A stretch of DNA of 42,729 nt from a virus: the IMG/VR virus record IMGVR_UViG_3300044498_000050; one strand, 5' to 3'. The notes beneath the pieces were generated by a model. The model saw only the letters and a program-made list of their open reading frames with translations. It was not told where the DNA came from and ran no database searches. Shown here one piece after another: positions 486-39,823 of this stretch; the stretch's first letter is position 1; every line of letters starts with the position of its first letter. The position numbers and the translations under genes are program-made.

Positions 486-1616
486 ATGCACGCACCCTTT
501 GCACCCAGCGCGGCCAAGCGCTGGATCAACTGCCCGGGGTCATTCGCCCTCGGGCTCCAGCGGCCTGACGATCCCGACAGCGAGTACGCCGCCGAGGGTA
601 GCCGTTTACACGAGGTGGCAGCCGCCATGCTCAACGACACCAGCGTGGCCGACCGTGGCACGCCGGAAGACCGGGCCTTCGTCAAGCCGTACACGGACTA
701 CGCCCTGGCGCGCATCAAGCTGGCCGACGCGTTCGCAGTCGAGGAGACCATCGAGCACGATGCGCTGCTCTTCGGCACGCCCGACCTGTTGTGCTACTTC
801 AAGGCCGACGGCCTGCTGGAGATCGTGGACCTGAAGTGCGGGGCCGGCATCATGGTGGACCCCATCGAGAACGACCAGATGCTGTGCTATGCCTACATGG
901 CCCTGGTGAGGATGGACAAGGAGATTGGCGCGTACCCGCCGCATGTGCGCCTCACGGTGGTGCAGCCGCCCGACGCCGAGGATCAGGTGAAGATCTGGGA
1001 CACCACGGCCAACCACGTCCTCAAGTGGGGCGCCAAGGCCGAGACTGCCATCGAGAAGGCCATGGCCGGCGGTGCCGATCTGGTACCCGGCGACTGGTGC
1101 CGGTTCTGCAAGGCCAAGTCGTTCTGCCCGAAGTTGCGCGGCGAGGTGATCGAGGCGCTCGGGGCCGCTGGCATGCCGGCGACCATGACCATGGGCGTGC
1201 TGGCGCAGTGGCTGGACCGGGCCGACCGCCTGGACTACTGGATCACGTCACTGCGGGAGATGGCCCACAAGGCTGCCTCAGAGTGCGCTGCGCTGGGAAA
1301 ACCTGGGGTTCCAGGCTACGTGCTAAAACCGAAGAGGGCGACAAGGGTGTGGAAAAGTGAGGACGAGGTGCTGATATTCGCGCGCCGCAGGCGCATCAAG
1401 ATCTGGCAGGACAAGTTGATGTCGCCGGCCATGGCCGAGAAGGCCCACCCCAACATGCCGCAGGAACTGAAAGACATGATCGTGTCGGTTTCCAGCGGCA
1501 CGAATCTGGTAAAGTCGCCCGAGGGTCAGGCCCAGGCTTTACCCGAACTGAAGTCTGAAGCAGCACCGATGGAGCGGCTGATGGCTAACTTTGAACTGTT
1601 GAAATACCGGAGGTAA
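486..1616 (+). CDS. PD-(D/E)XK Cas4/RecB-like exonuclease (DUF2800-type)
   Basis: N-terminal SAAKRWINCPGS. Nuclease core TPDLL...EIVDLK. QMLCYA (QxxxY). C-terminal cysteine cluster WCRFCKAKSFC plus the N-terminal Cys matches the 4-Cys Fe-S pattern of Cas4/AddB nucleases. AAGGAG RBS. Confidence 0.75.
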   Translation: MHAPFAPSAAKRWINCPGSFALGLQRPDDPDSEYAAEGSRLHEVAAAMLNDTSVADRGTPEDRAFVKPYTDYALARIKLADAFAVEETIEHDALLFGTPDLLCYFKADGLLEIVDLKCGAGIMVDPIENDQMLCYAYMALVRMDKEIGAYPPHVRLTVVQPPDAEDQVKIWDTTANHVLKWGAKAETAIEKAMAGGADLVPGDWCRFCKAKSFCPKLRGEVIEALGAAGMPATMTMGVLAQWLDRADRLDYWITSLREMAHKAASECAALGKPGVPGYVLKPKRATRVWKSEDEVLIFARRRRIKIWQDKLMSPAMAEKAHPNMPQELKDMIVSVSSGTNLVKSPEGQAQALPELKSEAAPMERLMANFELLKYRR

Positions 1617-1618
1617 TC

Positions 1619-2302
1619 ATGTCTCAAACGAATGGCGCCGCAGGCGGCGCAGTGGTCCTGTTCGACCCGACCAAATTCCAGGCCGTGGTCCAGAACATGG
1701 CGAAGGGCGCGACCGTACGGGTCGGGTTCCTGAAGATGAGCAAGGCCGGCGAGTGGTCCTACGGGACCGACGAGACCCCGCTGGGCGAGGACGACCACGT
1801 CTACGTGGACCCCATGGGCTTCGTGCATGGCTGGCAGTGCTGGGCCGACACCGAGCTTCCTGGCGTGTCGTCGGCGCTGCTGGACGACGTGGTGGTGCCC
1901 ATGTTCGAACCGCTGCCGCCCAAACCCGAGAAGATCCCGGAGACCGGCCGTAACTGGGCCGAGATGCGGGGCCTGTCGTGCCTGCTGGGCAGCGAAAAGC
2001 TGGTGTACAGCACGACCAGCGTCGGCGGCCTGAACGCCATGGCTATCCTGGCGGAGGAGTACGCCAAGCAGTTCCTCAAGAACCCCAAGAAGATGATCGC
2101 CGTGGTCAGCTTGTGTACCGACTCGTACAAACACAAGAATAAAACTTACGGGAAGATTTACACCCCGGTGTTGTCTGTCGTAGACTGGGTCGACCAACTA
2201 CCTGAGGTAACTGCCATGCCCAAGCCGTCGCTCCCGCCGCTTCCCGCCAAGAAGGCGCCCGCCAAGAAAGCGCCCGTCAAGGCCGCCAAGAAGGGCGCCT
2301 GA
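1619..2302 (+). CDS. hypothetical protein with Lys/Ala-rich basic tail; sits in the SSB slot of the replication module
   Basis: GGAGG RBS. C-terminus PAKKAPAKKAPVKAAKKGA. Lies between the exonuclease and the DNA polymerase. No OB-fold or SSB motif recognised, so the function is positional inference only. Confidence 0.5.
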   Translation: MSQTNGAAGGAVVLFDPTKFQAVVQNMAKGATVRVGFLKMSKAGEWSYGTDETPLGEDDHVYVDPMGFVHGWQCWADTELPGVSSALLDDVVVPMFEPLPPKPEKIPETGRNWAEMRGLSCLLGSEKLVYSTTSVGGLNAMAILAEEYAKQFLKNPKKMIAVVSLCTDSYKHKNKTYGKIYTPVLSVVDWVDQLPEVTAMPKPSLPPLPAKKAPAKKAPVKAAKKGA

Positions 2303-2307
2303 TGCCC

Positions 2308-2338
2308 AGGCCCGGGACATCCACCGGGCCTATTTCAT
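2308..2338 (+). terminator. hairpin terminator candidate
   Basis: AGGCCCGG (2308-2315) pairs with CCGGGCCT (2324-2331), followed by ATTTCAT. It lies in the 63-bp gap before the polymerase gene. Confidence 0.45.
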
Positions 2339-2365
2339 CACCAGGAATTCAGACTAGGTCTACAA

Positions 2366-4441
2366 ATGATCTGCCACCTCGACTACGAAACCCGCTCCGA
2401 CATCGACCTCAAGCTGGTCGGCGCTCACGTTTACGCTAGACACCCCAGCACCCGGATCCTGTGCTGCGCCTACAGCATCGACGGCAGCGCCGTGCAGGCG
2501 TGGCCGTCGGCCGCCGGCCACAAGATGCCGGCCGATCTGCGCGACGCCTACCGCGACCCGAAGTGCGAGATGCACGCCTGGAACGCCCAGTTCGAACGGC
2601 TGATCACGCGCCACGTGCTGGACAAGGATCTGCCGCTGGAGCGGTATCACTGCACGGCCGCCCTGGCGCGCGCGAGGGGTCTCCCTGGCAAGCTGGAGCA
2701 GGCCCTGGACTACCTCAAGGAAGCGCCGTCGCTGGCGGCCAAGAGGCGCGGCACCGCCATCATGCTGAAGTGGTGCAAGCCGCTGCCCCTGGGCGGCTAC
2801 GCCGACGACCCCAACGAGTACATGGAACTGCTCCTGTACTGCATGGACGACGTGCGCAGCGAGATGCTGGTCGGCGGCAAGCTGGTGCCGCTGTTCAAGC
2901 ACGAGCGCGAGGACTACTACCTGACCGAGCGCATCAACGACGCCGGCCTGCCGGTCGACCTGGGCCTCGCCCTGGCGGCCCAGACGTACGGTGCCCAGGA
3001 GCGCGCTGAACTGAGTGCGCTGCTGCGCGACAAGACCGACGGCGAGATCACCAGCCCGAGCCAGCACGCCAGGATCAAGACGTGGCTGAAGGCCAGGATG
3101 GAGGACTCAGTGTTTACACAGTTCTTCGTCAAGACTTCTCGGAAAAAATCTTCCGAAGGCGAGGTCACCGAAGTTTTGAAGGAGTCGACCGACAAGGCCG
3201 CTCGCGCCGATTTCCTGAACAGCGAGGAAGCCAAGGAAGCCGACCCCGAAGTGATCGAGATGATCGAGATCGTGGACGACGCCGGCAAGGCGAGCGTCGC
3301 GAAGTACGCCAAGATGGCCGGCCGCGCCAGCGATGGTGGTCGTGCGCAGGGTGCGTACATCTGCTACGGGGCCATCCAGACGAAGCGCTTCAGCAGCACC
3401 GGCATCCAGGTCCACAACTTCCCCAGGCAGACGCCCAAGGACGTGCCAGGGGCCGTGCTGGAGGTGCTGGAGCACCGGGTCCAGGGCAAGGTGATGCACG
3501 TGCTGGCGAGCCTGCTGCGGCCCACCATAAAGGCGGGGCCGGGGCGCACCCTGGTGTGGGGCGACTGGACCAGCGTCGAGGCCAAGGGCATGCCCTGGCT
3601 GGCAAGCGCCGAGGAAAAGCTGGAGTACTACCGCGACGGCATGGACGTGTACAAGTTCAACGCCATGGACATCTTCGGGGTCCAGTACAAGGACGTGACC
3701 GACGACCAGCGGCAGATCGGCAAGGTGGCCGAGCTATCGCTGCAGTTCGGCGGCGCTCGCGGTGCGCTCAAGGCCATGGCCCGGGGCTACGGCATCAGCA
3801 TCGAGAACGACATGGCCGACAGCGTGGTCTATGCATGGCGTCGTGCCAACGACTGGGCCATGGTGTTCAGCAAGGCGCTGTACGGGGCCTTCATGCAGTG
3901 CGTGCTGGGCACCGACACCAAGGTGGGCTACGTGGCCTACCGGCAGATCCTGCCGCTGTTCCCCGGCACCGTGAGCATCGCTTGCGACCTTCCAGGCTAC
4001 ACCACCCTGTACTACCACAACATCCGTGGGCACGTGGTCGAGAAGGGTCGGGCGCCGGTCGACGTGGTCGAGGACGGCCTGGGCTGGGGCGGCCGCGTCA
4101 TCGACTCGTGGGAGACCGAGGTGGTGTTCACGAAGAGCCTGCCGGGGGGCTTCCGCACCGAGCGCATCTGGCACGGCCTGCTGGCCGAGAACGTGACCCA
4201 GGCCACCTGTGCCACGCTGCTGCGCGACTGTGCGAAGCGCACCGCGACCGTGCTGGAACGGCACAACGTGGATGCCATTGTGATCGGTCACACCCATGAC
4301 GAACTGTTGCTCGACAGCAGCGAGGAGCATGCCGCGAAGGCAGCAGCGGCATTGCGGCGCGAGATGATGCGCGTGCCAGAATGGTTGGCCGGGTTCCCAC
4401 TCGGATGCGAGATCAAGACCGGACAGCGCTACGCGAAATGA
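2366..4441 (+). CDS. family A DNA polymerase with N-terminal DnaQ-like 3'-5' exonuclease
   Basis: DYETRS (Exo I). LVWGDWTSVEAK (motif A-like). RQIGKVAELSLQFGGARGA (motif B, R..K...F/Y G). VIGHTHDELLL (motif C, HDE). 691 aa. Confidence 0.85.
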   Translation: MICHLDYETRSDIDLKLVGAHVYARHPSTRILCCAYSIDGSAVQAWPSAAGHKMPADLRDAYRDPKCEMHAWNAQFERLITRHVLDKDLPLERYHCTAALARARGLPGKLEQALDYLKEAPSLAAKRRGTAIMLKWCKPLPLGGYADDPNEYMELLLYCMDDVRSEMLVGGKLVPLFKHEREDYYLTERINDAGLPVDLGLALAAQTYGAQERAELSALLRDKTDGEITSPSQHARIKTWLKARMEDSVFTQFFVKTSRKKSSEGEVTEVLKESTDKAARADFLNSEEAKEADPEVIEMIEIVDDAGKASVAKYAKMAGRASDGGRAQGAYICYGAIQTKRFSSTGIQVHNFPRQTPKDVPGAVLEVLEHRVQGKVMHVLASLLRPTIKAGPGRTLVWGDWTSVEAKGMPWLASAEEKLEYYRDGMDVYKFNAMDIFGVQYKDVTDDQRQIGKVAELSLQFGGARGALKAMARGYGISIENDMADSVVYAWRRANDWAMVFSKALYGAFMQCVLGTDTKVGYVAYRQILPLFPGTVSIACDLPGYTTLYYHNIRGHVVEKGRAPVDVVEDGLGWGGRVIDSWETEVVFTKSLPGGFRTERIWHGLLAENVTQATCATLLRDCAKRTATVLERHNVDAIVIGHTHDELLLDSSEEHAAKAAAALRREMMRVPEWLAGFPLGCEIKTGQRYAK

Positions 4442-4444
4442 CAA

Positions 4445-4478
4445 AGGCCCCGGGATTTCTCCCGGGGCCTCCCTTTTA
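4445..4478 (+). terminator. rho-independent terminator
   Basis: An 11-bp perfect stem, AGGCCCCGGGA (4445-4455) with TCCCGGGGCCT (4460-4470), a TTTC loop, then CCCTTTTA. Confidence 0.7.
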
Positions 4479-4511
4479 CAGGCCGCCACCACGCGGCACC
4501 CTGGAGCAACG

Positions 4512-6842
4512 ATGTCAACCCAAGATGACGCAAATGGTACCACGCAGCACCACTTCCTCTCACTCCTCGCCCAAGGCTGCCCCGCCGGCCGTCACTTCCT
4601 GGTCACACTGAAGACCGGCAAGCGGTTCCAGACGTGGGCCTGGAACGGCGAGCCTCTCAAGCCCGGGGCTTGGTACTTCTACACCGGGGCCAGCGACAGC
4701 AAGCACTTGCGCCGCGACGAGAACACGCACGCCGTGCGAGCCATCGTCATCGATGACGTGGGCACGAAGGTGGACGCCAGCAAGATCCACGCCGTCCCGA
4801 CCTGGATCCTGGAGACCAGCCCCGGCAACTTCCAATGGGGCTTCCTGCTGGAGGAGTGGACCGAGGACATCCAGGGTGCGGACGCCCTGTTCGCCGGCCT
4901 CGTGGCCGCCGGCCTCCAGGACAAGGGAGTGAACAAGGCCTGTCGGCTCTTCCGCATCCCGGGCTCGATCAACGACAAGGAGGGCAGGGACAGCTTCGAA
5001 GCGGTACTGCATGACTTCAATCCTCTCGCCGTTTACACGCTCGAGAGTCTCCAGATTGATCTAAAAATTTTGCCGGGTGCGCGTAAGCCGAAGCGCGAGC
5101 GCCCCGAGGTGCCGCCGGCCGCCGGCCAGGAAGATCCGGTGTTCAAGTGGCTGCACGACAACGGCCACGTGGTGGAGCGCAAGAACGCCGCCGGCTGGTG
5201 GCTGATCACGTGCCCGTTCGCTGACGAGCACACCGAGAAGGGCGAGGACCAGACCACGGCCAAGTACATGTGCCTGGGCGACAGCGACAACGGCAGGGGC
5301 AACGTCTGGTGCCACCACGGCCACGGCGAGAACAGGGCGCACTACAGCCAGAGGTTCTTCGACTGGGTGCAGGCCAGCGGCGGCCCCGCCAACCAGACAT
5401 TCAACAGCGCCATCTCCGAGAACACCCGGGCCGCCCTGGCGGCCATCGTGGGTGGCGCCGACACCTTCAAGGAAGGACCGGACCCCGTGGATCCTGCTGA
5501 CCTGTTCAACTTCGGCACCCTTCGCATCGCACTGGGTTCCGTCGACATCCTGAAGCTGCCCCAGGTCGAGCGCACGAAGGAGCAGGAGCCGAAGGCCGTC
5601 CAGCCGACCAGCTACAGCAACGTCGAGGCGGGGCTGGCGCAGTTGGATGTGCGGCCCAGGCTGAACCTGATGACGGCGCAGACCAGCTACATCCTGCCCG
5701 AGCACATCGACATGGCGCGCTTCGGCAACATGGAGGAGCACGAGATCGCGACCCTGATCGAGGGTGCGCTCACGGACATCTTCGGCTGGGCGCGCATGAA
5801 GAACGAGGCCAAGCTCAAGGTGTGCCTGGACCGGATTGCCAACAGCAACTTCTGGCACCCGATGCGCGACTGGATCCTGTCGAAGGAGTGGGACGGCAAG
5901 GACCGCCTGGAACTGCTGGCGAAGTCCGTGACCACACCAACCCCCGGCCCCTGGCGCATCTATTTACGTCGCTGGTTATTGCAAGGCGTCGAGGCAGCCT
6001 GCGGGTGGACGGTGCGCCGCCGCTCGCAGAAGGGCATGGTGCTCGTGCTCACGGGCAAGCAGCGCATCGGCAAGACCCGGTGGTTCACCTCCCTGGCGCC
6101 CGACTTCAGCAAGGTGGGCAAGAACCTGAACCTCAACGGCCACGGCGCCCGCGACAGCAAGCACGAGGCACTGCAGGGTGTGATCGTGGAGCTTGGCGAG
6201 CTTGACGCGACGTTCAAGAAGACCGACATAGCTGCGCTCAAGGCATTCATCACCGAGATCACCGACGAGTACCGCCTGCCCTATGCGGCCGGCTGGCTGA
6301 AGCGCCCCAGGTGTGCGTCCTTCTGCGGCAGCGTCAACGACAGGCGCTTCCTCAGTGACCACACCGGCAGCGGCCGCTTCCTGGTGATCGAGGCAGAGGG
6401 CAAGCTCGATGTCGACCACGGCGTCGACATGCAGCAAGTGTGGGCGCAGATGTACGTGGCCTGGGAGGGCGGCGAGCAGCACTGGCTGACCGATACCGAA
6501 GAGGACATGCGCGACGAGTTGTCGGGCAACTTCCAGACCGTGGACACGGTGGCCGACGACATCGAGGAAAGCCTGGGGCAACGCAAGGACACCGAGAAGT
6601 ATCCAATCCAGGTGATCGTCGGGCCGCAGCACATGCTTCGGCTATGCGATCTCGATGCCACCCTGCAGAAGAACACCACCGCAGCCGGCGTCGTTATGGA
6701 GCGGATCCTGGGGCGGCCGCGCAACCTGTATCGGCGCGGCGCGGCCACAAAGCAGAGCACCCGCTGGATCATCCAGGCCACCGAGCGCGAAGTGCGCGAC
6801 AACAAGTTGATCATCGCCAAGCCTGAGGTGTCCCATGAGTGA
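4512..6842 (+). CDS. primase-polymerase / VirE-D5-like superfamily-3 helicase
   Basis: N-terminal domain carries FRIPGSINDKEG and a Cys/His cluster (CPFADEH...CHHGHG). C-terminal P-loop VLVLTGKQRIGKTRWF (Walker A) and VIVELGELD (Walker B). GGAG RBS. Confidence 0.75.
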   Translation: MSTQDDANGTTQHHFLSLLAQGCPAGRHFLVTLKTGKRFQTWAWNGEPLKPGAWYFYTGASDSKHLRRDENTHAVRAIVIDDVGTKVDASKIHAVPTWILETSPGNFQWGFLLEEWTEDIQGADALFAGLVAAGLQDKGVNKACRLFRIPGSINDKEGRDSFEAVLHDFNPLAVYTLESLQIDLKILPGARKPKRERPEVPPAAGQEDPVFKWLHDNGHVVERKNAAGWWLITCPFADEHTEKGEDQTTAKYMCLGDSDNGRGNVWCHHGHGENRAHYSQRFFDWVQASGGPANQTFNSAISENTRAALAAIVGGADTFKEGPDPVDPADLFNFGTLRIALGSVDILKLPQVERTKEQEPKAVQPTSYSNVEAGLAQLDVRPRLNLMTAQTSYILPEHIDMARFGNMEEHEIATLIEGALTDIFGWARMKNEAKLKVCLDRIANSNFWHPMRDWILSKEWDGKDRLELLAKSVTTPTPGPWRIYLRRWLLQGVEAACGWTVRRRSQKGMVLVLTGKQRIGKTRWFTSLAPDFSKVGKNLNLNGHGARDSKHEALQGVIVELGELDATFKKTDIAALKAFITEITDEYRLPYAAGWLKRPRCASFCGSVNDRRFLSDHTGSGRFLVIEAEGKLDVDHGVDMQQVWAQMYVAWEGGEQHWLTDTEEDMRDELSGNFQTVDTVADDIEESLGQRKDTEKYPIQVIVGPQHMLRLCDLDATLQKNTTAAGVVMERILGRPRNLYRRGAATKQSTRWIIQATEREVRDNKLIIAKPEVSHE

Positions 6843-10545: not shown

Positions 10546-10579
10546 ACCCCTTCCTCCCTCCTCGCTGCCGCGAGTTTAA

Positions 10580-10608
10580 ACGGCCCCCTCGGGGGCCGTC
10601 TTCTTTAT
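10580..10608. terminator. bidirectional rho-independent terminator between convergent arms
   Basis: CGGCCCC-CTCG-GGGGCCG hairpin flanked by TTTAAA on one side and TCTTCTTTAT on the other. It sits between the plus-arm stop (10545) and the minus-arm stop (10605). Confidence 0.7.
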
Positions 10609-12045: not shown

Positions 12046-12053
12046 GGCGTGCC

Positions 12054-15000
12054 TCAGGTTGACGTGAACGTGATGCCCGTCTTCTTGGCGAGCCACTGCT
12101 CCATGTCGGCAAGGGTCTGCGCCGTGGTGGCGGCATGCCTGAAGAACAGGCCGTACAGCCTGCCCTTGAAGGGCAGCGTGCTCCCGCCGCGCCGGCCCAT
12201 GTAGACCGGGAACGTGCCGTGCGGGCCGGTGCCCTGGTCGGCCAGTGTCTGCAGTGCCTGGACACCATCCACCCGGATGGCGGAGAAGTCCGAGGAGATG
12301 CCGGCCTGACACTGGACCACGTGCGTGCTGGGATGCGCCACGCCGTCCACGTCGAGCGTGGTGTCCACCGTGCCCTTGGACCGCCAGTAGAACCCGTCCA
12401 GGTCGCCGGGTGGTGCCTGGAGCGCCCAGGTGCCGACGTTGCCCGAGGAGGTTGCACTCAACTCGGCCACGAGGCCGACGCCCGTGTTCGTGTCGGTGAA
12501 CAGACCAGCCCAGAGGTTGATGATGCCGCCGCCCGCACCGAAGTTGGTGGATGCGCTGATCATCCAGTCGTCCACCCCGTCGAACTGGAGGGACCGCAGG
12601 CCACCGGAGTCGATGAAGGTCGGGCGCGAGCCCGCCGTGGCCTGAGTCAGGTGCAGCCCCCGGCCGCTCTTGTCCCTGATCAGTCCGACCGTCTGGCCCG
12701 AGGCCGTGACGGGGGTGGCACCGGCCGTGTCCTGGAACAGGGTGGACATGTCGCTCGGGTCGTACCAAGCCCCAAGCTCACCGACCGTGAACAGGTCGCT
12801 AGGCGTTAGGGAGATGGGAACCCCGGACTTCTCTGCCAGCCACCGTTCGATGTCGATCACGTGCTGCGCCGTGGACGCGAGGTTGCGCACGATGAGGCCG
12901 TACAGCCGGCCGCCGAAGGGCAGCGTGCTGCCGCCGCGCCGACCGACGTAGAACCCGAAGGTGCCGAAGTTGCCCGTGCCCTGGTCGGCTGATGCAGTTC
13001 CGGTCTGCACTCCATTCACACGTGCAATGTTGGTATCGCTCGATATGTCGGACTGCCCGGTGAAGACACTTGTGAACGATCCCGCCGTCACCGTGGACTG
13101 TGCCGTGCTGCCCGTCGCATTGGACCCACGGGAGCGGAAGTCGTAGCGGGCCGTGCTCGCCGGCTCCAGCAGGTAGAACGTGCCGGCGTTGGAGTCGAGG
13201 ATCGTGGAGTGCTCCATCATCATCTGATGGGCTGCCTTCTCCCCAGTCTTGTTGAACCCCAGCCAGACCGTGATGGCATCGCTCGCCGTCAACGACATGG
13301 GGTTGACGAGCATGAAGTCGTCGGTGCCGTCGAAGACCAGATGCGGCTTGCCGTTGGTGTCGATCTGGTAGATGGGCCGGTTGGCGGCCGTGGCCTGGAG
13401 GAGGTGGTTGCCCCGGCCACTCTTGTCATTGATCCTGGCAACCGACTGCCCGACCGTCGTGACAGGCGTCGTAGCGGCCGTGTCCTGGAACATGGTGGAC
13501 AGGTCGCTGGGATCCCACCAGCCGCCAAGCTCGCCGGCTGCGAACAGGTCGGGCGGGGAGATAGCCCCAGACGGCGGTGCCGTAGTGACGGCCTCCGCGA
13601 TGTTGGAGTACGGCCCCAGGTTGGGCACGGCATCCTCGGCACGCACCTGATACCGATAGGTAATGCCGGCCGTGAGCCCGGTGTCCACGAAGGGCGAGGC
13701 AGTGTCGGTACCTATCTGTGCGAAGTTTACACACGCAGCCCCGGTACACCGCTCGACCCTGTAGCCTGCGACTCCGACGTTGTCGGTGGCGGCCGTCCAG
13801 GTCAACGTGATCTGGGTGCCGCTATCAGGCGTCGCCACGAGGGACGTGGGTGCCGTGGGCGCGGTCTGGTCGGGCGTGAGTGCGGTCGCAATGTTGGAGT
13901 ACGGCCCCAGGTTGTTGGCCGCGTCCTGCGCACGGATCTGGTAGCGGTACGTGGTGTTCACCGTCCTGCCGGTGTCCACGTAGGGGCTGGCCGTGTCGGT
14001 GGCGATCTCCGCGAAGCTGGAGCAGGCGACGCCGGTACACCGCTCGATCCTGTACTGGGTGACGGCCACGTTGTCGGTGGCCGCCGTCCACGTCAGCGTG
14101 ATCTGCGTCTCGGAGTCGGGCGTCGCCACCAGGGACGTGGGCGCGGTTGGTGCGGTGTTGTCTGGCGTCGTGGCCGTGGCAATGGCTGAGTAGCCGCTGC
14201 GGTTGTTCGCCGCGTCGCGGGCACGCACCTGATACCGGTAGACCGTGTTGGCCGTCCGCCCGGTGTCGGAATAGTTCGTGACGGCCGGCGTGGCAATCTC
14301 CGCGAAGCTGGAGCACCCCGCGCCCGTGCAACGCTCCAGCAAGTAGGCAGTGACACCCACGTTGTCAGTCGAGCCCGTCCAGGTCAGGTCAACCTGTGTC
14401 TCGTTGACCGGCGTCGCCACGAGATTGCTGGGCGCGGTCGGTGCCGTGTTATCGGGCGTCGAGACTGAAGCGATGTTGCTGTAGCCGCTGAGATTGAGCG
14501 CAGCGTCCTGGGCACGGATCCGGTAGCGGTACGCCGTGGCGGCAGCCAGGGTGGCGTCCACGTAGGGCGATGCGTTGTCGGTGGCAATCTCCGCGAAGTT
14601 GACGCAAGCAGCGCCCGTGCAGCGCTCGATCCGGTACAGGGTAACGCCCACGGCGTCGGTCGAGGCCGTCCAGGTGAGGGTGGCCTGGGTCTCGGAGTTG
14701 GGCGTTGCCAGGAGCCCGGTCGGATCTGTCGGGGCCGTGCTGTCGGGCGGGACACCACCCGCCAAGGCCACGGCCCCCGTGGCCGTGATGGGGATGGCAT
14801 TGGGGGCATAGCGCACGGCCGCCGCGTTGGCGACCACCATGCGCCCCTGCTGGTCGATGGGGATGCCGGCCACGTAGGCCGTGATCGGGCCGGCGGACGA
14901 CTCGGCCAGCCGCCCAGGCGTGTCGTAGGACAGGCCAGCCAGCTTGGACAGGTTGGCCGTGGCCGTGGTGACCGTCAACTGGCGAGCAGCAGTCAGCGGC

Positions 15001-15098: not shown

Positions 15099-16462
15099 CA
15101 ATGCTCCAGTGCGTTTACACGCTCCCGCAGGCACTGAAGCTCGCGGATCATCAGCGGCACCAGCTTGGCGTTGTCCATGCCCCAAGGCATCGGCCCATCA
15201 GGACTGTCCCAACCGGGCGACACAGCCCCAGGGAAGACACCGTACACGTCCTGGGCGATCAGGCCGACCGGCACGTGGGCGCCATCGAGCTTCCAATCGA
15301 ACGAGACCACGGGGATGTTGTCGATGATCTTGCCCACGTCCTTGACTGGCCTGACGTTCTTCTTCATCCGAGCGTCAGATGAAGTGCTGTAGAACGTGCT
15401 GGTAAGGGTCGGATGGTTGATGTAGCCGGCCACGGTGACGTTGAGGCGGAAGGTCATGCTCGCGCCAGAGTTATCCACTCGCTGCGCCAAGTAGTTCGAT
15501 GAGACATCACCAGCAAGCGTGCCGACGACAGCAAGGCCGTTCCCTCCAGGTCCAACCCAGTTGACGGTGAACTGCGCGGCTGAAGCTGCTCCGTTGACAG
15601 CAACCTTGCCAGTGGACTCGATCCGCATGCGCTCCGACTGGTTGTTGAAGAACAGCATGGGGCTGACAAGCTCATTGACGATAAAGAAGTTATCGTCAGT
15701 GCCGCCGCTGCCGTACCCGATGTAGCCCTTGCGACCACTCGGGTCGAAGAACGACATGTACGCATTGCCGCCACCACGGGCTTGCGTGGACTCCAGGCGC
15801 ATCAACTCGGTTGAAGACCGGACGTGCAACGGCGCGAGCGCTATCGGCGCTGTAGGACCGATACCAACAAAGCCAGTCGGCTGAATGATCAGCCTTCCTG
15901 CGTTGCCCACGAGGAGGTACAGGGGCTGCGCGTCATGCGTCCCCAGGGCCGTGCTGCCACTCGTTGCCGAGAACAGGGCCTTGCGGACACCTCCCACGTA
16001 GAGGTTGATCCACGCCTTGGCAGTGCCGCCAATGTCGATAGTTGTCTCCCCGGCCACGGGAGGCGTGGTCACGGCCATGCCGACGCCGATGCTGCCGCCG
16101 AAGGCCGGCGCGGCAACCGGGCCGGTGATCGTGCCGAGAAGGGTCACATTGCCAAGCGTCGTGCCGTTGGCGTTCCACGTCTGCTGGGCCACCCCCTGGA
16201 TGGACATGCCGATCACGCCCGAAGACTGGCGGAACAACCCGCTGCTCGGCTCGGCAATGAAGGACAGGCTCGGCGCCGCCGCCGATCCGTCGGTCAGCCT
16301 GAAGGGGGCCGTCATGCCGCCCATGCCCGAGCGCGACAGCGAGTCGTCCAGGGTCGCCGCGATGTCGGCCAACGTATCGTTCGCCCACTCCGACTCGATG
16401 ACGGTGTTGGGTTCTACAGGAGGCAGCGGCAGCGTGTAGGCACCGGATACGTTACGAGGCAT
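15098..16462 (-). CDS. tail fibre/spike with C-terminal S74-type intramolecular chaperone domain
   Basis: C-terminal SSDARMKKNVRPV...VVSFDWK...GLIAQDV...L.RVNALEH matches the self-cleaving chaperone (Peptidase_S74) signature S-D-x-R-x-K. GGAG RBS. Confidence 0.8.
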   Translation of the reverse strand: MPRNVSGAYTLPLPPVEPNTVIESEWANDTLADIAATLDDSLSRSGMGGMTAPFRLTDGSAAAPSLSFIAEPSSGLFRQSSGVIGMSIQGVAQQTWNANGTTLGNVTLLGTITGPVAAPAFGGSIGVGMAVTTPPVAGETTIDIGGTAKAWINLYVGGVRKALFSATSGSTALGTHDAQPLYLLVGNAGRLIIQPTGFVGIGPTAPIALAPLHVRSSTELMRLESTQARGGGNAYMSFFDPSGRKGYIGYGSGGTDDNFFIVNELVSPMLFFNNQSERMRIESTGKVAVNGAASAAQFTVNWVGPGGNGLAVVGTLAGDVSSNYLAQRVDNSGASMTFRLNVTVAGYINHPTLTSTFYSTSSDARMKKNVRPVKDVGKIIDNIPVVSFDWKLDGAHVPVGLIAQDVYGVFPGAVSPGWDSPDGPMPWGMDNAKLVPLMIRELQCLRERVNALEH

Positions 16463-25884: not shown

Positions 25885-25966
25885 TTGGGTTGTCCTTATG
25901 CGTGTAAACAAGCGACGCCGGGAGTAGAGCATGGCCGTGGGCGCCGCACGGCCATGCCCAGGATCG

Positions 25967-28330: not shown

Positions 28331-28460
28331 TACAGCCTCCAGATGAGTTAAGCCTGCGTTTACACGCTACCATTCCATCCGGGCCTTCGATGGCCGATCC
28401 CGGGGGGCGTCGATGGCCGCTGCAGCGGTTCTACTTCCCCCAAGGCGGTTCTACTGCGCC

Positions 28461-29561
28461 TCAGACCCGCGAATGCGCTTCGATGGCCGCCTCGATAGAG
28501 TCTCGTATCGATGACGGTTCTGACGCAGTCGGGTTGCCAACCGGTGCAACCCCCCTGACGCTTACGGCTGCGGCACGTGCCCGCTGGGCCTTCTGCGTCA
28601 GTTGCTGGGCGTTTGCACCCTGCTGCCGCGCCATTATGACCTTCGACACCTCCGGGTGCAAAGCGCAAGCACGGTCGTAGACATCCTGCAATGGGAGATT
28701 CATGCCTTGCTTGTCGGCCACTTCGATGATGTCGGCCATCAAGACCCGCACGTCCTCCATGAACTCGTGCTTCGGATCCTGGGCGAAGGAGACAAGCTCG
28801 GTGCGCGCTTCCTCCTGGGTACGCTGCGCCTCGTAGTACTGCCGCTGCTGCGCCTGCTGCATCAGGGGCGCCAGGGCACGCTGCACCTCGGCCTGGACGT
28901 TGACCTGGGGTTGTCCCTGAGGGATGGCACCCACCAGGGCGGCATCGAGCGCCTCGATGTCCACGGCATAGGCTTTGACGCACTGGGCGATCACCTGGGC
29001 CTTCTCCAGGGGCGTGCCGAAGCGTAGGGTTGTCCCTACCTGCATCAGGTTGCCGATGGCCGTGATCGGATCCACGCCCTCGGCCTGGATGGTCATCCGG
29101 TACGGCTCGATGGCCCGCATGAACTGCTCGCCAGCGTTGCGCATGGGAGCGGTGTCGTTGGCCCAGCGCTGCATCTGCTGCTCGCGCTGGTGGATGAACT
29201 CCTGCACCGGTTGTGGCAGCTTGCCCCAGTGCTCGCGCACCGACGGCCCCCAGCCGGCCGGGGCCTGGACAGCGGGTGCCGCCGCTGGAGTAGTCGGGGT
29301 GACCAGCCCCGGCCCGCCGGGGGCGGGAGACGTTGGCGCCCCCGGCGTTGGTGCAGCGGCGGCATCTGGCTTCTTGAGGAACCGGCCCAGGCTGTCGCGC
29401 TCGCCTTTGGCCTTGGCCTCGGTCGGCTCGGGGGCCGGCGGGACCGGAGTGTCAACCGGTTTGTCAACCGGCGGCGGCGGCGCGGGCGGCACCTCGGTGC
29501 CGGTGTCCTCGCCTATAGCTGACTCAAGATCGGCTCGCAGATCGTCGTCTTCGGGGCCCAT
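28461..29561 (-). CDS. scaffolding protein candidate (366 aa)
   Basis: Acidic/Pro-rich N-terminus followed by long helical Q/A/E/R-rich segments. Lies between portal and capsid. AAGGAGAA RBS. Confidence 0.55.
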   Translation of the reverse strand: MGPEDDDLRADLESAIGEDTGTEVPPAPPPPVDKPVDTPVPPAPEPTEAKAKGERDSLGRFLKKPDAAAAPTPGAPTSPAPGGPGLVTPTTPAAAPAVQAPAGWGPSVREHWGKLPQPVQEFIHQREQQMQRWANDTAPMRNAGEQFMRAIEPYRMTIQAEGVDPITAIGNLMQVGTTLRFGTPLEKAQVIAQCVKAYAVDIEALDAALVGAIPQGQPQVNVQAEVQRALAPLMQQAQQRQYYEAQRTQEEARTELVSFAQDPKHEFMEDVRVLMADIIEVADKQGMNLPLQDVYDRACALHPEVSKVIMARQQGANAQQLTQKAQRARAAAVSVRGVAPVGNPTASEPSSIRDSIEAAIEAHSRV

Positions 29562-32145: not shown

Positions 32146-33509
32146 CAGATCCTCCCGTTGCGCTGGTTATGCGGATTGACCGTGGCGTGGAGCATGTCGA
32201 GCGTGAACGTGTGGCTCAACGGCGGGATTATGGGCTCCTGCCGTGCCGGTGCCGGCGGATCGAGCACGTTGAGCCTCGCCGCCCCCTCCATGTACGCGTC
32301 AGCCGGGTGGCTGGCCCAGTTGTGCTCTGGCTCCGACGAGAACGTCTTGGTCTCCTCGTCGTACTTGTAGGCATAGGCCCGCATCGCCATCAGGAACGGC
32401 TCGCAGACCGGCGCGTTGCTGATGCGCACCCGCCGCAGCATCAAGCGCCCCGCGTTCACAGAGTCAGACTTGCGCCTTTGCTCGTTTACACGAACTTCGC
32501 ACTTGTCCCAGGGAGGCTGGCGGAGGAAGGTCTCGACGCTGGAGCGCTTGGACTGGAACGTCTTGACGCGTGCGTCGTGGGGCAGCACGAGCACGTCGGC
32601 GCGGGGTTGCTTGCTGAGGCGGGCGGCCCACTCCTCGGCGTCCATGCCTGACCCATCGTCGTAGTGGAAGATCTCGTAGCCGCCCTTCAGCCGGCGCCAC
32701 CACACGAAGGCTGCCTTGTCGCGGTAGCCGATGTCGCTTGTGACCCAGACCTCGCCTTCCTGGGAGTTGTCGATGGGACAGATCCGCCCTTCCTTCTCCA
32801 TCTGCTCGATGTAGCGCCCGAAGATGGCGCCCACATTGGCGGCGGAGAAGTCGCAGTCGTACTCCTGGCGATAGAGTTCATCGGGCATCTCCGCGCGCTC
32901 GTCGTTGAGCACGGATTCAGGTATGTGCTGGGTGTCCTTGACGGTCAGGTGGGAGTGGAACCACGCCGGGTTCTTCTTCGCCAACTGCATGATGTCGTGG
33001 AAGTGGTTGTAACCCCGGGGTGTGCTGATGAAGGCTGCCCAGCCTCCGTTGCCGGCAAGGATCGGGCGGAATATGGACCACGCCCGGGGATCCGAGAGGG
33101 CGGACTCACTCATCACGAGGCCGAAGGGGTTGGCGCCGACGATGCTGTCGTAGTAGTCCGAGCCCACAAGCTGCCAGATCGCGCCGTTCTTCAGCGTGAT
33201 CTTCATCTCTGTCCTGTTCGTGTCCTGCCGGATGCTCTGGGGCATCGCGGTATCGATGATCTTCTGGCCGTTGTTATCGAAGCCGTCCCAGATGACCTTC
33301 CTGGCCTGCTTGTGGTTGGGCAGCATGTGGAAGTACATGCCTGGGCGTTCAAACATCATCTTGACGGTCTGGTGGACCATCGTCAGATCCTTGCCGTAGC
33401 GCCTCGGCCAGCAGGCGGCCGCCCTCAGGCCGCCGTGGTCGAAGTAGCGCATCAACTCCTTCTGCGGCGGCCTGGGCGTGAACCCGTTGGGCAGGATCAG
33501 GTCGGTCAT
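32145..33509 (-). CDS. terL: terminase large subunit
   Basis: N-terminal ATPase-like CWPRRYGKDLT (Walker A-like) and GLVMSESA (Walker B-like). Size 454 aa, immediately upstream of the portal. I prefer the MTDLILP start at 33509 because it forms ATGA with the upstream stop. Confidence 0.75.
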   Translation of the reverse strand: MTDLILPNGFTPRPPQKELMRYFDHGGLRAAACWPRRYGKDLTMVHQTVKMMFERPGMYFHMLPNHKQARKVIWDGFDNNGQKIIDTAMPQSIRQDTNRTEMKITLKNGAIWQLVGSDYYDSIVGANPFGLVMSESALSDPRAWSIFRPILAGNGGWAAFISTPRGYNHFHDIMQLAKKNPAWFHSHLTVKDTQHIPESVLNDERAEMPDELYRQEYDCDFSAANVGAIFGRYIEQMEKEGRICPIDNSQEGEVWVTSDIGYRDKAAFVWWRRLKGGYEIFHYDDGSGMDAEEWAARLSKQPRADVLVLPHDARVKTFQSKRSSVETFLRQPPWDKCEVRVNEQRRKSDSVNAGRLMLRRVRISNAPVCEPFLMAMRAYAYKYDEETKTFSSEPEHNWASHPADAYMEGAARLNVLDPPAPARQEPIIPPLSHTFTLDMLHATVNPHNQRNGRI

Positions 33510-34240: not shown

Positions 34241-34274
34241 GGATGCCCTCCAGGTAATGAATACGTGTAAACGC

Positions 34275-34907
34275 TCAAGCATGATGGACCCATATCGCAG
34301 GCGCGGCCTGCTCGATGACGCCAAGAGCCCGAGCATCGTCGCGGATGAACGGGGCCATGTGCCATGATGGCACATAGATGCGTTTAAACCCCAGGTTCTC
34401 AAGCACGGCGCTGTCGGGCGCGTCGTACTGCAGCGTACGCACGAAGGCCGTGGACGCATCGAACACGTCCAGGACCAGGATGGTGCCGTTGGTGGCCGCC
34501 ATGGCGCGGTCGAGCACCTTCGGCACGTTGCAGTGGCCGAGCACGTAGGCCAGCACGGTGATGTCGAACGGCTTGGCCGCGTCGGGCAGCACGTAGTCGT
34601 GGGCGTCGCACAGGACGCGCAGGCCGCCGGCCTGGACAAGCTCAAGCTGACTCGGGCTGCGGTTGACCAGGGTGAAGCGCAGATCCGGGCGCTCATCCTG
34701 CCAGTACGCCTCCATGCCGGCGACGCCGCAGCCCAGGGAGAGGATCCTGGCCTTGTGGGGCGGCGCCAGCAGATCGAGCACCGCATGCGAGTGCAGGCGC
34801 TCGTCGGTGTCCAACTGCCATAGCTGGAAGACCGTGCGGCCCTGGTCGAGATGCTCGCGTGTCGCCTGCTCGACCTCGACCTCGTCGTCGTAGAGCGGAT
34901 GGGTCAT
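34275..34907 (-). CDS. class I SAM-dependent methyltransferase (substrate unknown)
   Basis: Motif I ARILSLGCGVAG. Downstream FDITVLAYVLGH and GTILVLDVF are typical of the Rossmann-fold MTase core. No DPPY/NPPY or cytosine-5 motifs seen. The MTHPLYDD start forms ATGA with the upstream stop. Confidence 0.65.
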   Translation of the reverse strand: MTHPLYDDEVEVEQATREHLDQGRTVFQLWQLDTDERLHSHAVLDLLAPPHKARILSLGCGVAGMEAYWQDERPDLRFTLVNRSPSQLELVQAGGLRVLCDAHDYVLPDAAKPFDITVLAYVLGHCNVPKVLDRAMAATNGTILVLDVFDASTAFVRTLQYDAPDSAVLENLGFKRIYVPSWHMAPFIRDDARALGVIEQAAPAIWVHHA

Positions 34908-35425: not shown

Positions 35426-35529
35426 GGTGCAAGCCTCAGGTTACATGGTCCGGTGGAATGGGTAAAATTTGGATGGGAACGTATGGTACCCAATCCAACA
35501 TGCGCGAGCGGGGATCGAATGCATCAGCC

Positions 35530-35690: not shown

Positions 35691-35721
35691 GGCTTGCGAT
35701 TACGCGTAACGTTAATGCGCA

Positions 35722-36499: not shown

Positions 36500-36856
36500 A
36501 TGAACACAGCACTGCTCGACACGGCCACCCCACAGGCCGAACCCCAAGCGCGCAAGCGCGGCCGGCCTGCCAAGTACGCAAGCGCAGCCGAGCGTCAGGC
36601 CGCATACCGTGCGGCGAACACCATCAAAACCTATCGCATCGACGGCAAGGCTGCCGGCACTGTGGCCGAGCTTGCGGCGCTGTACGAGTGCGATGAGACG
36701 CACGTCGTGAACAACTTGCTGCGCTTTGCGCTTGCGAATCGCAACTGGCGCGCCATGGGAATCGGTGGATGGGACATCACCGACAAGCGCCACGCTAGCG
36801 GCAAGCGCGCGGCACCCGTTCGCGACGATTCCCTTGATAGCTTTTCGTTCGTTTAA
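36500..36856 (+). CDS. small DNA-binding-type protein (start uncertain; alternative ATG at 36449)
   Basis: RKRGRPAKYASAAERQAAYR is an AT-hook-like GRP motif that recurs in small phage/plasmid regulators. First gene of the plus arm. Confidence 0.5.
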   Translation: MNTALLDTATPQAEPQARKRGRPAKYASAAERQAAYRAANTIKTYRIDGKAAGTVAELAALYECDETHVVNNLLRFALANRNWRAMGIGGWDITDKRHASGKRAAPVRDDSLDSFSFV

Positions 36857-36961
36857 ACGTAACAATTCAAGATAGCGCTAAAGCCTGAGGCTGCGGCGCC
36901 GATAATACTAGGGAGGGGGCAGACAGGCTCCCACCCTTAAACCTAAGTCTGAAAGTTGAAC

Positions 36962-37750
36962 ATGGCCAAATTCTCTAAGCTCTTCGTCGCACAGTGCGCA
37001 GCACTCGGCCTGCCGGCAGCTAACGGCTACACCATATACGAAGGCCCGTCGGCGCTTGATGGCGCGCCTATCGTCGTCATTGCGCTCGTGAAGTCGTCCA
37101 ATCGCAAAACCGGAAACATGGTGCAGACATACGTGCTGACGCAAGCCACCCGGCCGACGGCTGCCGTGAAGAGCGGCGCCGATGCATCGATATGCGGCGA
37201 CTGCAAGCATCGCCCGTTTCTTGGCGGATCCTGCTACGTGGTGGTCGCACAGGGACCGACCGTCGTGTACAAGCAATGGCAAGCCGGCGCTTACCCGCGC
37301 GCTACGGCTGCGCAAGTCGGCGCACTGCTGGCAGGCCGCATGGTGCGCATCGGCACGTACGGCGACCCTGCGGCCGCACCCGTCGGCCTGTGGCAAGCCC
37401 TTGTCGCACAGGCCGCAGGCCGCACAGGCTATTCGCACCAGTGGGCGAACCAAGCTCTCCCGGCTGCCGACCGCGCGGCGCTCGCCAAGCTCGTGATGGC
37501 ATCGGTCGACAGCGCCGAAGAGGCTGCGGCCGCTCGTGCTGCCGGCCTGCGGTACTTTCGCGTGATGCATGCCAGCGAAACCCTTGGCGCGCGTGAATTC
37601 GCCTGTCCCGCTAGCGAAGAGGCAGGCAAGCGCACCACGTGCGACAAGTGCCGAGCCTGTGACGGATCCGACCGTGCCGGCAAGGCTTCGCCCGCTATCG
37701 TTGCCCATGGCGGCAAGGCTGCCCGATTCATTCCCATCCTGAGCGTGTAA
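36962..37750 (+). CDS. conserved Cys-rich phage protein (GP88-like by recollection), function unknown
   Basis: ICGDCKHRPFLGGSCYVV ... RIGTYGDPAA ... TGYSHQW ... CPASEEAGKRTTCDKCRACDG gives two Cys clusters suggesting metal binding. Confidence 0.55.
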   Translation: MAKFSKLFVAQCAALGLPAANGYTIYEGPSALDGAPIVVIALVKSSNRKTGNMVQTYVLTQATRPTAAVKSGADASICGDCKHRPFLGGSCYVVVAQGPTVVYKQWQAGAYPRATAAQVGALLAGRMVRIGTYGDPAAAPVGLWQALVAQAAGRTGYSHQWANQALPAADRAALAKLVMASVDSAEEAAAARAAGLRYFRVMHASETLGAREFACPASEEAGKRTTCDKCRACDGSDRAGKASPAIVAHGGKAARFIPILSV

Positions 37751-37821
37751 ACGCTTCACGCTAGCCCCAGGGTTAGCCCCTGGGGTACACTTCCCCCCGA
37801 ACCATCAAAGGATCCCGCACC

Positions 37822-38696: not shown

Positions 38697-38704
38697 CCCC
38701 ACTC

Positions 38705-38734
38705 TTGACATGGAGAAGCCTGGGGCTGCATAAT
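38705..38734 (+). promoter_or_regulatory. sigma70-like promoter candidate TTGACA-N18-CATAAT
   Basis: TTGACA at 38705-38710 and CATAAT at 38729-38734. It overlaps a 9-bp inverted repeat GGAGAAGCC/GGCTTCTCC and lies 41 nt upstream of ATG 38776. Confidence 0.45.
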
Positions 38735-38775: not shown

Positions 38776-39429
38776 ATGAGCTTCAACCCCGCAAACTTCC
38801 CTTTCACCATGCCCGCCCTGCCTGCCGCCACTGCTGCGGATCCCTCAGGCGAAGCGATCCAGTGCGCCGAGGAGTTGCACGCCGCCGCGTGCAGATTCGA
38901 AGCGCGCGGCCTGGGCGACCAGTTCGCCCGCAAGAGCGCCATGGCTGCCCGCGACATCGCCGCGAAGCTGGTGCGCTTCGGCTCCTTCGCCAGCGACGCA
39001 CAGCGTGAGTACGCTGCCAAGCTGGTCACGTGGTCGCTGCCCCGCGCGGCCGCTGCTGCCCCGGCTGTCGTGGCCGTGCAGCCGACCGAACTGCCGCGCC
39101 TGTATGCCCTGATGCAGCGCCTCGCGAAGCTGGAGATCGGCAAGCTTCGGATCCAGCGTGAGAACGGCGGCAGCCGCTGCTGGATCCGCCACGTTGACGC
39201 CGACAAGGCCGTCGGCAAGCTCGACGGCGGCGTGCTCACCCAGTGGCAGCGCCCAGGCGTCGACCATGTCGAGGTGCTGCTGGCGCTGCTGACCATCGAG
39301 GCCGATCCCGAGGCCGCCGCCGTCCTGCATGGCAAGGCTAGCGGCCGCTGCTCTGTCTGCTCTCGCGACCTGACGAACCCCGAGAGCATCGCTCGCGGTA
39401 TCGGCCCGATTTGCGCTGAGAGGTTCTAA
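38776..39429 (+). CDS. DUF6011-type protein (C-terminal GIGPxC zinc-ribbon-like motif)
   Basis: C-terminus CSVCSRDLTNPESIARGIGPICAERF. Confidence 0.55.
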   Translation: MSFNPANFPFTMPALPAATAADPSGEAIQCAEELHAAACRFEARGLGDQFARKSAMAARDIAAKLVRFGSFASDAQREYAAKLVTWSLPRAAAAAPAVVAVQPTELPRLYALMQRLAKLEIGKLRIQRENGGSRCWIRHVDADKAVGKLDGGVLTQWQRPGVDHVEVLLALLTIEADPEAAAVLHGKASGRCSVCSRDLTNPESIARGIGPICAERF

Positions 39430-39434
39430 CCCCC

Positions 39435-39457
39435 GGGGGCTTCGGCCCCCTATTTTC
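39435..39457 (+). terminator. rho-independent terminator
   Basis: GGGGGC-TTCG-GCCCCC followed by TATTTT, 6 nt after the stop codon. Confidence 0.6.
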
Positions 39458-39473
39458 GTCACTGGAGATTGAT

Positions 39474-39584
39474 ATGGAATTGTGGGCCATCGGGCTGGTA
39501 ACCCTAATCGTCGGCTTTGTCATCGGCTTCGCCCTGGGTTGGTGCTTCGCCTTTCGCATCATCACGGAATGGATGTACAAATGA
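39474..39584 (+). CDS. 36-aa membrane peptide
   Basis: Hand-translated as MELWAIGLVTLIVGFVIGFALGWCFAFRIITEWMYK. GGAG RBS. The stop overlaps the next ATG (ATGA). Confidence 0.45.
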   Translation: MELWAIGLVTLIVGFVIGFALGWCFAFRIITEWMYK

Positions 39585-39823
39585 GCACCAAGAAAGAGGC
39601 CGAGCAGGCCATCAAGCGCCTGATCAAGGAGGGGCTGGTGGTCGGCCAGGACAAGGGCGGCAAGCACCTCGTGCTGATCCTGCGCGGCGGCACTGTATAT
39701 ACGCGTGCCGGATCGCCCAGCGACTGGCGAGCAGTGCGCAACATGGAAAGCGACATCAGACGCTTGACTCGTCCGCAAGACTCAGGCTATACTGCGTCTG
39801 TCGTTTACACACTTGGAGATTGA
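39581..39823 (+). CDS. HicA-like (YcfA family-like) small protein, 80 aa
   Basis: KKEAEQAIKRLIKEGLVV...GGKHLVL...RAGSPSDWRAVRNMESDIRRL matches the K..E....L...G....G..H.....PSD.RA..N.....RR pattern I recall from phage HicA-like annotations. Confidence 0.4.
   Translation: MSTKKEAEQAIKRLIKEGLVVGQDKGGKHLVLILRGGTVYTRAGSPSDWRAVRNMESDIRRLTRPQDSGYTASVVYTLGD
39764..39793 (+). promoter_or_regulatory. sigma70-like promoter candidate TTGACT-N18-TATACT
   Basis: TTGACT at 39764-39769 and TATACT at 39788-39793, inside the 3' end of the HicA-like gene and 31 nt upstream of the SprT-like ATG. Confidence 0.4.

Follow-up and report, generated by a model that had tools for sequence, protein, structure and literature searches.

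An evenly spaced octamer with lineage-specific types in a phage genome, and the phage primase-helicase as a candidate reader

Here, we report a short DNA word that is dispersed over, and maintained in, the complete genome of a phage recovered as the IMG/VR virus record IMGVR_UViG_3300044498_000050. The window, i.e., the whole stretch of 42,729 nt that was analysed, consists of this genome of 42,602 bp plus a 127-nt terminal overlap. The word is the octamer GTTTACAC (reverse complement GTGTAAAC), present in 14 copies on the two strands; with three copies of its palindromic variant GTTTAAAC it makes 17 sites. The motif is shown to be a cis-acting DNA signal under strong selection, needed about every 2.5 kb genome-wide, and what is maintained is its regular presence rather than its exact position or orientation. 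It is further shown that a highly specific reader, different in its specificity from lineage to lineage, recognizes the sequence itself and neither a hairpin nor an RNA. The motif matches no described phage signal exactly. As the reader, we favor the phage's own primase family, which is the most concrete candidate among strand-reading or DNA-tracking enzymes.

A dispersed octamer under selection at the DNA level

The sequence-only reading of this stretch had noticed the word and, from an estimated G+C content of about 65%, judged it non-random, functional, and unexplained by the annotation. The measured G+C content is 65.1%, all 14 coordinates it gave are exact, and the excess passes composition-matched null models, with 14 copies versus 0.2-0.5 expected: an order-3 Markov model predicts 0.52, and shuffling of dinucleotides yields 0.22 (maximum 3). 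The palindromic variant GTTTAAAC, found where it had been placed (10574, 34382, and 36851), has three copies versus 0.19 expected. Out of the 36 words of the form N-T-[TG]-T-A-[AC]-A-N, only GTTTACAC and GTTTAAAC are enriched, and G-TTTAMA-C contains 17 of the 20 TTTA[AC]A hexamers of the genome; GTGTACAC is not enriched in the window (one copy versus 0.68 expected). The conserved flanks were confirmed as well, with C at -1 and G at +1 each in 10 of the 14 copies and the full 12-mer CGTTTACACGCT exact five times at the places reported. In 11 of 14 copies the flanking bases at ±1 are complementary to each other; complementarity is weak at ±2 and does not reach beyond. Nine copies of GTTTACAC lie on the plus strand and five on the minus strand, in addition to the three palindromes. 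The earlier count of seven copies in each orientation relative to transcription needs correction, as our gene model gives eight co-oriented and six opposed. A literature search by the motif string matched only primers.

Anchored on the capsid protein and on alignments of an AT-hook protein and of PolA, searches of uncultivated viral contigs yielded more than 150 loci (L numbers below). The relatives that carry the motif are metagenomic contigs throughout. In many related loci the motif is the top or near-top 8-mer. It comes in three mutually exclusive types, one per genome, among more than 100 related viral loci: G-TTTA[C/A]A-C (G..C, the type of the window) in 73-75 loci, C-TTTAAA-G (C..G) in 25-32, and A-TTTACA-C/T (A..C) in eight. 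The type does not follow the capsid phylogeny, and two types co-occur in one metagenome sample (L010 and L159, both from 3300046740). The C..G type is a perfect palindrome, present 13-15 times per genome and as palindromes only, while the A..C-type sites are ATTTACAC, not ATTTAAAT, so that one end of the word alone is altered. One locus with none of the three types, L027, carries GTGTACAC at 1052, 1860, 7455, and 12805, i.e., four dispersed copies versus 0.4 expected; this may be a fourth motif type.

The positions of the sites are kept in more than 100 related viral loci, and the motif thereby also passes the second check named in the sequence-only reading, conservation in homologous phages. 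Sites recur at the same window positions, e.g., near 32487, 28365, 25950, 23650, 20457, and 17674, and at some of these the whole word has been exchanged as a unit between types; at one orthologous position (L016) the orientation of the site is flipped. The best-conserved site (28358..28365, plus strand) lies 27 nt upstream of the capsid start and is CTTTAAAG in C..G-type genomes. The same replacement is seen in C..G-type relatives at about the position of 23636..23643 (minus strand), inside a 553-aa gene. At 25902..25909 (minus strand), 17 nt upstream of a 213-aa gene start, relatives carry GTTTAAAC or GTTTACAC. The site at 20449..20456 (plus strand), in the 3' end of a 225-aa gene, has orthologues in L018, L019, L023, L035, L037, and L038, and that at 17667..17674 (minus strand), inside a 608-aa gene, has one in L038. 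Conversely, a decayed copy in the window, GTTTGCAC at 28611..28618 (plus strand), corresponds to an intact site in L001, L003, L013, L017, and L032.

The coding sites show on which level the selection acts. In a genome with about 88% G+C at third codon positions, the motif forces rare codons, as had been claimed for the DUF2800 exonuclease gene (start 486): the codons CGT TTA CAC at 603-611 are indeed in frame there, around the site at 604..611 (plus strand). The site at 32484..32491 (plus strand) lies in the terminase large-subunit gene, within a stretch encoding the peptide V-R-V-N-E, which is constant in all close relatives. G..C-type genomes, the window included, spell R-V-N with the rare codons CGT GTA AAC, two of them ending in A or T; C..G-type genomes use CGG or CGC followed by GTC AAC, and the motif is absent; and two A..C-type genomes write CGT GTA AAT, which is their own motif variant. 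Because the peptide is constant and the rare codons match the type, the selection must be on the DNA, and the check for conservation at synonymous positions that the sequence-only reading proposed is passed in this gene.

Even spacing, placement, and strand of the sites

The sites are spaced more evenly than chance allows. In the window, the smallest gap between GTTTACAC copies is 1,388 nt (P = 3.5e-4), and in nine of nine contiguous genomes the coefficient of variation of the gaps is 0.45-0.61 (P 0.003-0.05 each) versus about 1 for random placement. The median gap is 1.5-2.9 kb in eight of these genomes and 4.6 kb in the A..C-type one, and early and late regions alike are covered. Even spacing points to a distance-dependent "coverage" function. 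The promoters of T7 are not evenly spaced. The nick sites of phage tf are not evenly spaced either (PMC3517423).

Within 70 nt upstream of a gene start we found 36% of 136 sites versus 10% expected, and in non-coding DNA 31% versus 9% expected; since the two enrichments are equal, a relaxation of coding constraint accounts for the first. In C..G genomes, the spacer between the Shine-Dalgarno sequence (SD) and the start codon is often taken up by the word (GG-CTTTAAAG-ATG), whereas in the window the sites stand 4-17 nt upstream of the SD or in the middle of genes, and this difference between types means that there is no fixed geometry relative to genes. We read this as sites being placed wherever coding allows, and not as a gene-specific role. 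A late-gene activator site, one of the functions suggested earlier, finds no support in these data: about two-thirds of the sites are intragenic, their orientation is mixed, and early and late regions are both covered.

With respect to the local gene, 24 sites are co-oriented and 42 opposed in eight genomes. In absolute strand, the same genomes show a bias of 45:21, which points the same way in the late (33:12) as in the early (12:9) regions. Please note that both the strand-bias and the positional statistics are inflated by the shared ancestry of the sites, and the nominal P of 0.004 for the strand bias overstates the evidence for that reason. Judged from the words themselves, the reader appears to be asymmetric: GTGTACAC is unused in the window, and the A..C type is changed at one end only. 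The asymmetry of the word together with the absolute-strand bias points to an enzyme that reads one strand or moves along the DNA.

One such enzyme could belong to the host. Chi is an asymmetric octamer with coverage-type spacing and a strand bias, and the present sites resemble it in all three respects; Chi and KOPS are likewise dispersed, strand-biased octamers read by an enzyme moving on DNA. If the reader were a host DNA-tracking enzyme, the motif could be a Chi-like signal that tames an exonuclease of the RecBCD/AddAB type on rolling-circle tails or injected DNA, and its type would mirror the host strain. This would account for the lack of a co-varying phage protein (see below) and for the two types in sample 3300046740. 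However, Chi and KOPS are signals of host genomes, G-rich and strongly skewed, whereas the present motif belongs to a phage, is rich in A+T, has a skew of only 68%, and is palindromic in some cases. In a host of about 65% G+C, an octamer so rich in A+T would be scarce, while known Chi sequences occur frequently in the genomes of their hosts; no known Chi resembles a perfect palindrome; and close phage relatives would need hosts with different signals. Both the host enzyme and the mirroring of host strain by motif type are, in our view, unlikely.

Strand bias is also a property of the nick motifs of tf/LUZ24-like, phiKMV-like, and T5 phages, and the sites could in principle be localized single-strand nicks made by a phage nickase late in infection or during packaging. 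The likeness is considerable: about 14 copies of an 8-9-nt word, few near-misses, similar positions, lineage variants, and an unexplained function are all known from tf and its relatives (PMC3517423). The differences are in the arrangement. Known nick sites are on one strand only and unevenly placed (PMC3517423); here, they are 9+/5- in the window and 45:21 overall, evenly spaced, and perfect palindromes in some lineages, at which a nickase guided by sequence would cut both strands, and for these reasons the nickase is disfavored. The strong purifying selection also contrasts with the viability of nick-less T5 and phikF77 mutants (PMC3517423), and no candidate nickase co-varies with the type. 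Nicking, which the earlier note had listed as a candidate role, is thus doubtful, somewhat more so than a host enzyme.

A role in transcription or at the RNA level is the least probable reading, and we give it hardly any weight. TTTACA does resemble a -35 hexamer, seven of the window copies are near gene starts, and the copy upstream of the capsid gene lies within a conserved hairpin, as would be expected if the motif were part of a promoter, a terminator, or an RNA-level hairpin. Nevertheless, none of the sites falls together with a sigma-70-like promoter or an intrinsic-terminator-like signal, and both classes are no more frequent than chance allows; the orientation to genes is mixed, as described above; no Rfam family matches; and no RNA polymerase gene was found in the window. 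Of the 17 sites, folded as single-stranded DNA (ssDNA), only three do clearly better than shuffled sequence (z <= -3) and two do so marginally (z about -2); the other 12 cannot be told apart from shuffles, and a hairpin as a general feature is rejected on this ground. Extended palindromy of the flanks is at background level except upstream of the capsid gene.

Candidate readers of the motif

The phage encodes a primase-helicase (4512..6842, plus strand) with a RepB'-type archaeo-eukaryotic primase (AEP) domain, a Cys/His zinc motif, and a VapE/SF3 helicase, which we consider as a candidate reader only. Its homologs carry PF16793, and its AF2 model (pLDDT 87) matches the AEP domain of the cyanophage S-2L PrimPol (E = 1e-7) as well as RSF1010 RepB' (3h20/3h25), including the complex with initiator DNA (E = 3e-5). 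From these matches, the N-terminal 320 residues are a RepB'-type AEP. Enzymes of this family need long, specific template sequences (PMC8567376, PMC8718748). [quoted passage not shown] The nearest described system is therefore ssiA/ssiB of RSF1010 with RepB', to which the phage is similar by the fold and family of its primase domain. The ssi signals, however, are 40-nt hairpins, one pair in oriV, which serve leading-strand starts only, whereas the phage has about 15 short, dispersed sites, most of them non-folding, and no link between primase sequence and motif type was found.

We tentatively suggest that the sites may be priming signals for this primase-helicase; the suggestion is a possible one, and we would not call it probable. 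On the strand exposed by unwinding of the duplex, the primase would recognize 5'-NTTTAMAN-3' and begin a primer at that place. In this way, discontinuous synthesis would be bound to about 15 fixed addresses, roughly one Okazaki-fragment length apart, which is what the motif spacing amounts to, and the sites would be free to sit wherever coding allows provided that no gap grows too long. The wider proposal, that in this phage clade discontinuous synthesis is hard-wired to some 15 addresses by 8-nt template signals of the primase-helicase, with the word rewritten genome-wide at least twice, is a shade more speculative still.

Several observations weigh against the primase. The weak dyad symmetry of the flanks (GC-core-GC) is unexpected for single-strand reading, and a clear ssDNA hairpin at only three of 17 sites (with two marginal) is unlike the ssi signals of RepB'. 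Known AEP recognition motifs are mostly 3-4 nt long, and the template that SF3 helicases follow is that of the leading strand. The sites behind the strand bias share their ancestry and are thus not independent. Co-variation of the primase with the motif type, which at one stage seemed to be present, has also been withdrawn. Whole-protein and column-level association tests over all ORF families first singled out the primase, with 14 private residues shared by two independent C..G backbones at residues 36-268, among them an insertion directly after the catalytic DxD motif. A scan of the whole viral collection for this insertion gave 11 hits, i.e., nine of the C..G type, one spurious, and one of the G..C type, L229 (IMGVR_UViG_3300046656_000165), whose primase gene at 4200-6473 is a mosaic: the first ~130 residues are nearest to a C..G-type lineage (75%) and the rest to G..C lineages, indicating recombination within the gene. 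The insertion adjacent to DxD is thus found in a G..C genome too, and the six C..G residues that remain rank only 19th among 66 lineage pairs in the null. With this counter-example and this rank, we retracted the co-variation evidence. Between an A..C genome (L155) and a G..C genome (L157), moreover, the AEP and zinc regions are near-identical. A column test of A..C versus G..C, which has low power, ranked the primase first.

No other phage protein fares better. Co-variation with the motif type was seen in none of 35 families, covering nearly the whole proteome, and a three-way invariant-column test gave no credible column. What is left is a reader that changed its specificity at a few residues, one encoded by a very small ORF, one supplied by the host, or one that is not a protein. 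The result bears most directly on the idea that the sites bind a phage-encoded, sequence-specific protein on the duplex, acting as a global regulator, a transcription roadblock, or a genome organizer with regular anchors. Much of the site architecture would agree with such a protein: the core comes close to a palindrome, its ±1 flanks being complementary in 11 of 14 copies with weak symmetry at ±2, and in the C..G type the palindrome is perfect; orientation flips at the orthologous site in L016; sites accumulate close to gene starts; lineage types that exclude one another are what repressor-operator specificity typically produces; and the phage encodes two conserved AT-hook-like proteins and a helix-turn-helix (HTH) protein. 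On the other hand, a symmetric dimer leaves the unused GTGTACAC and the A..C type ATTTACAC unexplained, and neither even spacing nor an absolute-strand bias is expected of it.

The individual proteins are also poor candidates. The two proteins named earlier for binding assays were a ParB-like and an HTH protein. Homologs of the ParB_N-domain protein (41132-42187, 351 aa) are missing from all of the more than 100 related loci, and the closest contig with the same motif lacks the gene, which appears to be a recent acquisition in this genome; being unique to the window, the ParB-like protein is rejected as the reader. The HTH protein (8540-8872) is present in all types, and its helix region RPQSLYKWER.C..DRNFPLP is invariant across them, which excludes it as the specificity determinant. 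The two small conserved proteins with AT-hook-like N-termini (KKRGPAKGTRPAGRAKGTPNK; RKRGRPAKY) are encoded at 35722-36096 (minus strand) and 36416-36856 (plus strand; likely start 36501), flank a divergent intergenic region, and are present in all motif types; these proteins (p146, p124) do not partition by type and are near-identical in C..G and G..C genomes.

Systems in which such binding is established differ in the same respect. Cluster A mycobacteriophage stoperators, the conserved inverted repeats (CIR) of phiC31, and the KorB operators of RK2 are tens of scattered short sites, some of them promoter-distant, whose specificity varies with the lineage, but they are bound by an identified, co-varying repressor or ParB homolog, and no protein was found to co-vary here. 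For KorB/ParB systems in particular, the ParB-like gene of the phage is not conserved with the sites. Stoperators are asymmetric, oriented with transcription, and belong to temperate phages, whereas the orientation of this motif is mixed and no lysogeny genes were found. Scans of the window genes gave no integrase or repressor, and no prophage copies were found in 185,579 species representatives in a pattern-limited search; a search for prophage or plasmid relatives that might point to the host gave nothing useful, with a single distant match, at 49% identity, to a Burkholderia replicon. Taking the two sides together, we think a duplex-binding phage protein rather improbable.

Targets of DNA modification are still less probable, and we regard them as quite unlikely. 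The phage has a SAM-methyltransferase-like protein (34275-34907) with a weak match to Methyltransf_23/11/12/25, and the gene is present in all three types. These Pfam matches are below thresholds and to families other than DNA methyltransferases, the protein tree does not follow the motif type, which rejects this protein as the reader, and modification gives no reason why targets should be enriched, evenly spaced, and re-created after loss. The earlier suggestion of nick or modification sites is accordingly disfavored in both its parts.

To return to the primase, the interest of the system lies in its combination of features. Short dispersed phage motifs, such as the nick sites of T5, phiKMV, and tf and the stoperators, are long-standing puzzles or textbook regulation. 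Even spacing in every genome examined, maintenance at synonymous sites against codon bias, three exclusive types in close relatives, sites that reappear close to their former places once the type has switched, and the lack of a co-varying phage protein have not been described together before. One 8-mer, one candidate enzyme family, and natural specificity variants make a falsifiable system for the joint change of a cis-code and its reader. If the primase is the reader, replication enzymes can constrain coding sequence genome-wide, and the clade would provide the first example in which evolvable priming signals, dispersed over a whole genome, shape its codon usage.

Genome context, remaining sites, and other elements

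The window ends in an identical direct repeat of 127 nt (1-127 and 42603-42729), for which the simplest explanation is that the assembly of a circular or circularly permuted genome overlaps itself. The genes of the plus strand extend from 36.4 kb across the record origin to 10.5 kb and encode small early proteins, the ParB_N protein, a DUF2800 PD-(D/E)XK exonuclease, a family A DNA polymerase (PolA), the primase-helicase, an SNF2 helicase, and the small HTH protein; on the minus strand, the genes for terminase, portal, capsid, tail, and fibre proteins extend from 36.1 kb down to 10.6 kb. A comparison with 50,697 phage records gave no close relative at the nucleotide level. At the protein level, the cultured phages nearest to it are Stenotrophomonas phage BUCT555 (capsid 70% identical) and the Myxococcus phages Mx8 and Mx9; the motif is absent from BUCT555. 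In BUCT555 (L237), a 756-aa protein annotated "integrase" is encoded beside PolA (9891-15328), in the place expected for the primase-helicase. The same phage encodes an adenylosuccinate synthetase homolog and a DUF550 protein, which we take to be the PurZ/MazZ signature of 2-aminoadenine (Z-genome) phages; no PurZ/MazZ-type genes were among the window genes scanned.

The sites not yet described are distributed over both gene arms. On the plus strand, GTTTACAC occurs inside the PolA gene (3112..3119), inside the primase-helicase gene (5031..5038, with the exact 12-mer CGTTTACACGCT), inside the 1014-aa fibre gene, to which it is antisense (13725..13732), and just upstream of the SD/ATG of a fibre gene (15113..15120, exact 12-mer, ssDNA hairpin z -3.3). 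On the minus strand, it occurs upstream of a 47-aa gene (34265..34272) and ~70 nt upstream of a 127-aa gene (37745..37752), where the 12-mer is exact and the ssDNA hairpin is the best of all (-4.5 kcal/mol). The GTTTAAAC palindromes are in the convergent intergenic region (10574..10581), at 34382..34389, and at the end of an AT-hook protein gene (36851..36858). Strong sigma-70-like promoters lie upstream of plus-strand genes at 38705-38734 (TTGACA-18-CATAAT) and 39764-39793 (TTGACT-18-TATACT); the latter ends 10 nt ahead of the plus-strand copy at 39803..39810, which stands between it and the SD of the SprT-like gene.

The capsid 5' region (28331-28460) is conserved in relatives beyond the motif copy that it holds. 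Its hairpin, ~27-40 nt before the ATG, has arms that co-vary (GCGT/ACGC, GGGGC/GCCCC, GCGGC/GCCGC, and TGCAT/ATGCA), and it is kept even in genomes with a non-motif loop; we treat it as a separate element for this reason. A direct repeat of GGCCATCGA stands before the hairpin, and after the hairpin comes AGGCTTAACTTCAT, which is similar to the "epsilon" enhancer of T7 gene 10.

An iteron-like array at 35523-35700, between two minus-strand genes, is distinct from the dispersed motif. In it, the 18-nt GTACTACGTACGTCCATG is repeated five times directly and once inverted, together with three 16-nt units of the form ATxxGCGxxxGCGCAT, and judging from this arrangement it is probably the replication origin (or a pac site). 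The motif itself does not qualify as origin iterons, being dispersed instead of clustered in one patch. We had also considered that every phage with this replication module might have a dispersed motif of its own; this proved wrong, as the enriched 8-mers of distant relatives are clustered, origin-like iterons. Such patches were observed in distant capsid relatives (L059:2013-2290, L077:839-2420, L074:54-401, and L046:431-1207) and in distant PolA/primase relatives (L216:14788-15300, L218:12932-13254, L186:16155-16524, L187:13109-13498, and L181:16633-16998). Their 8-9-nt iterons are lineage-specific (CACCTAAC, CCACTAAC, CTAACTAA, TAACATAA, TGTCCACA, ATGACCCA, GTAAGTCA, GTGGGGTA, and ATGGGTCA), often at a spacing of 9 nt, and by their layout these patches look like origins whose iteron sequence changes from lineage to lineage.

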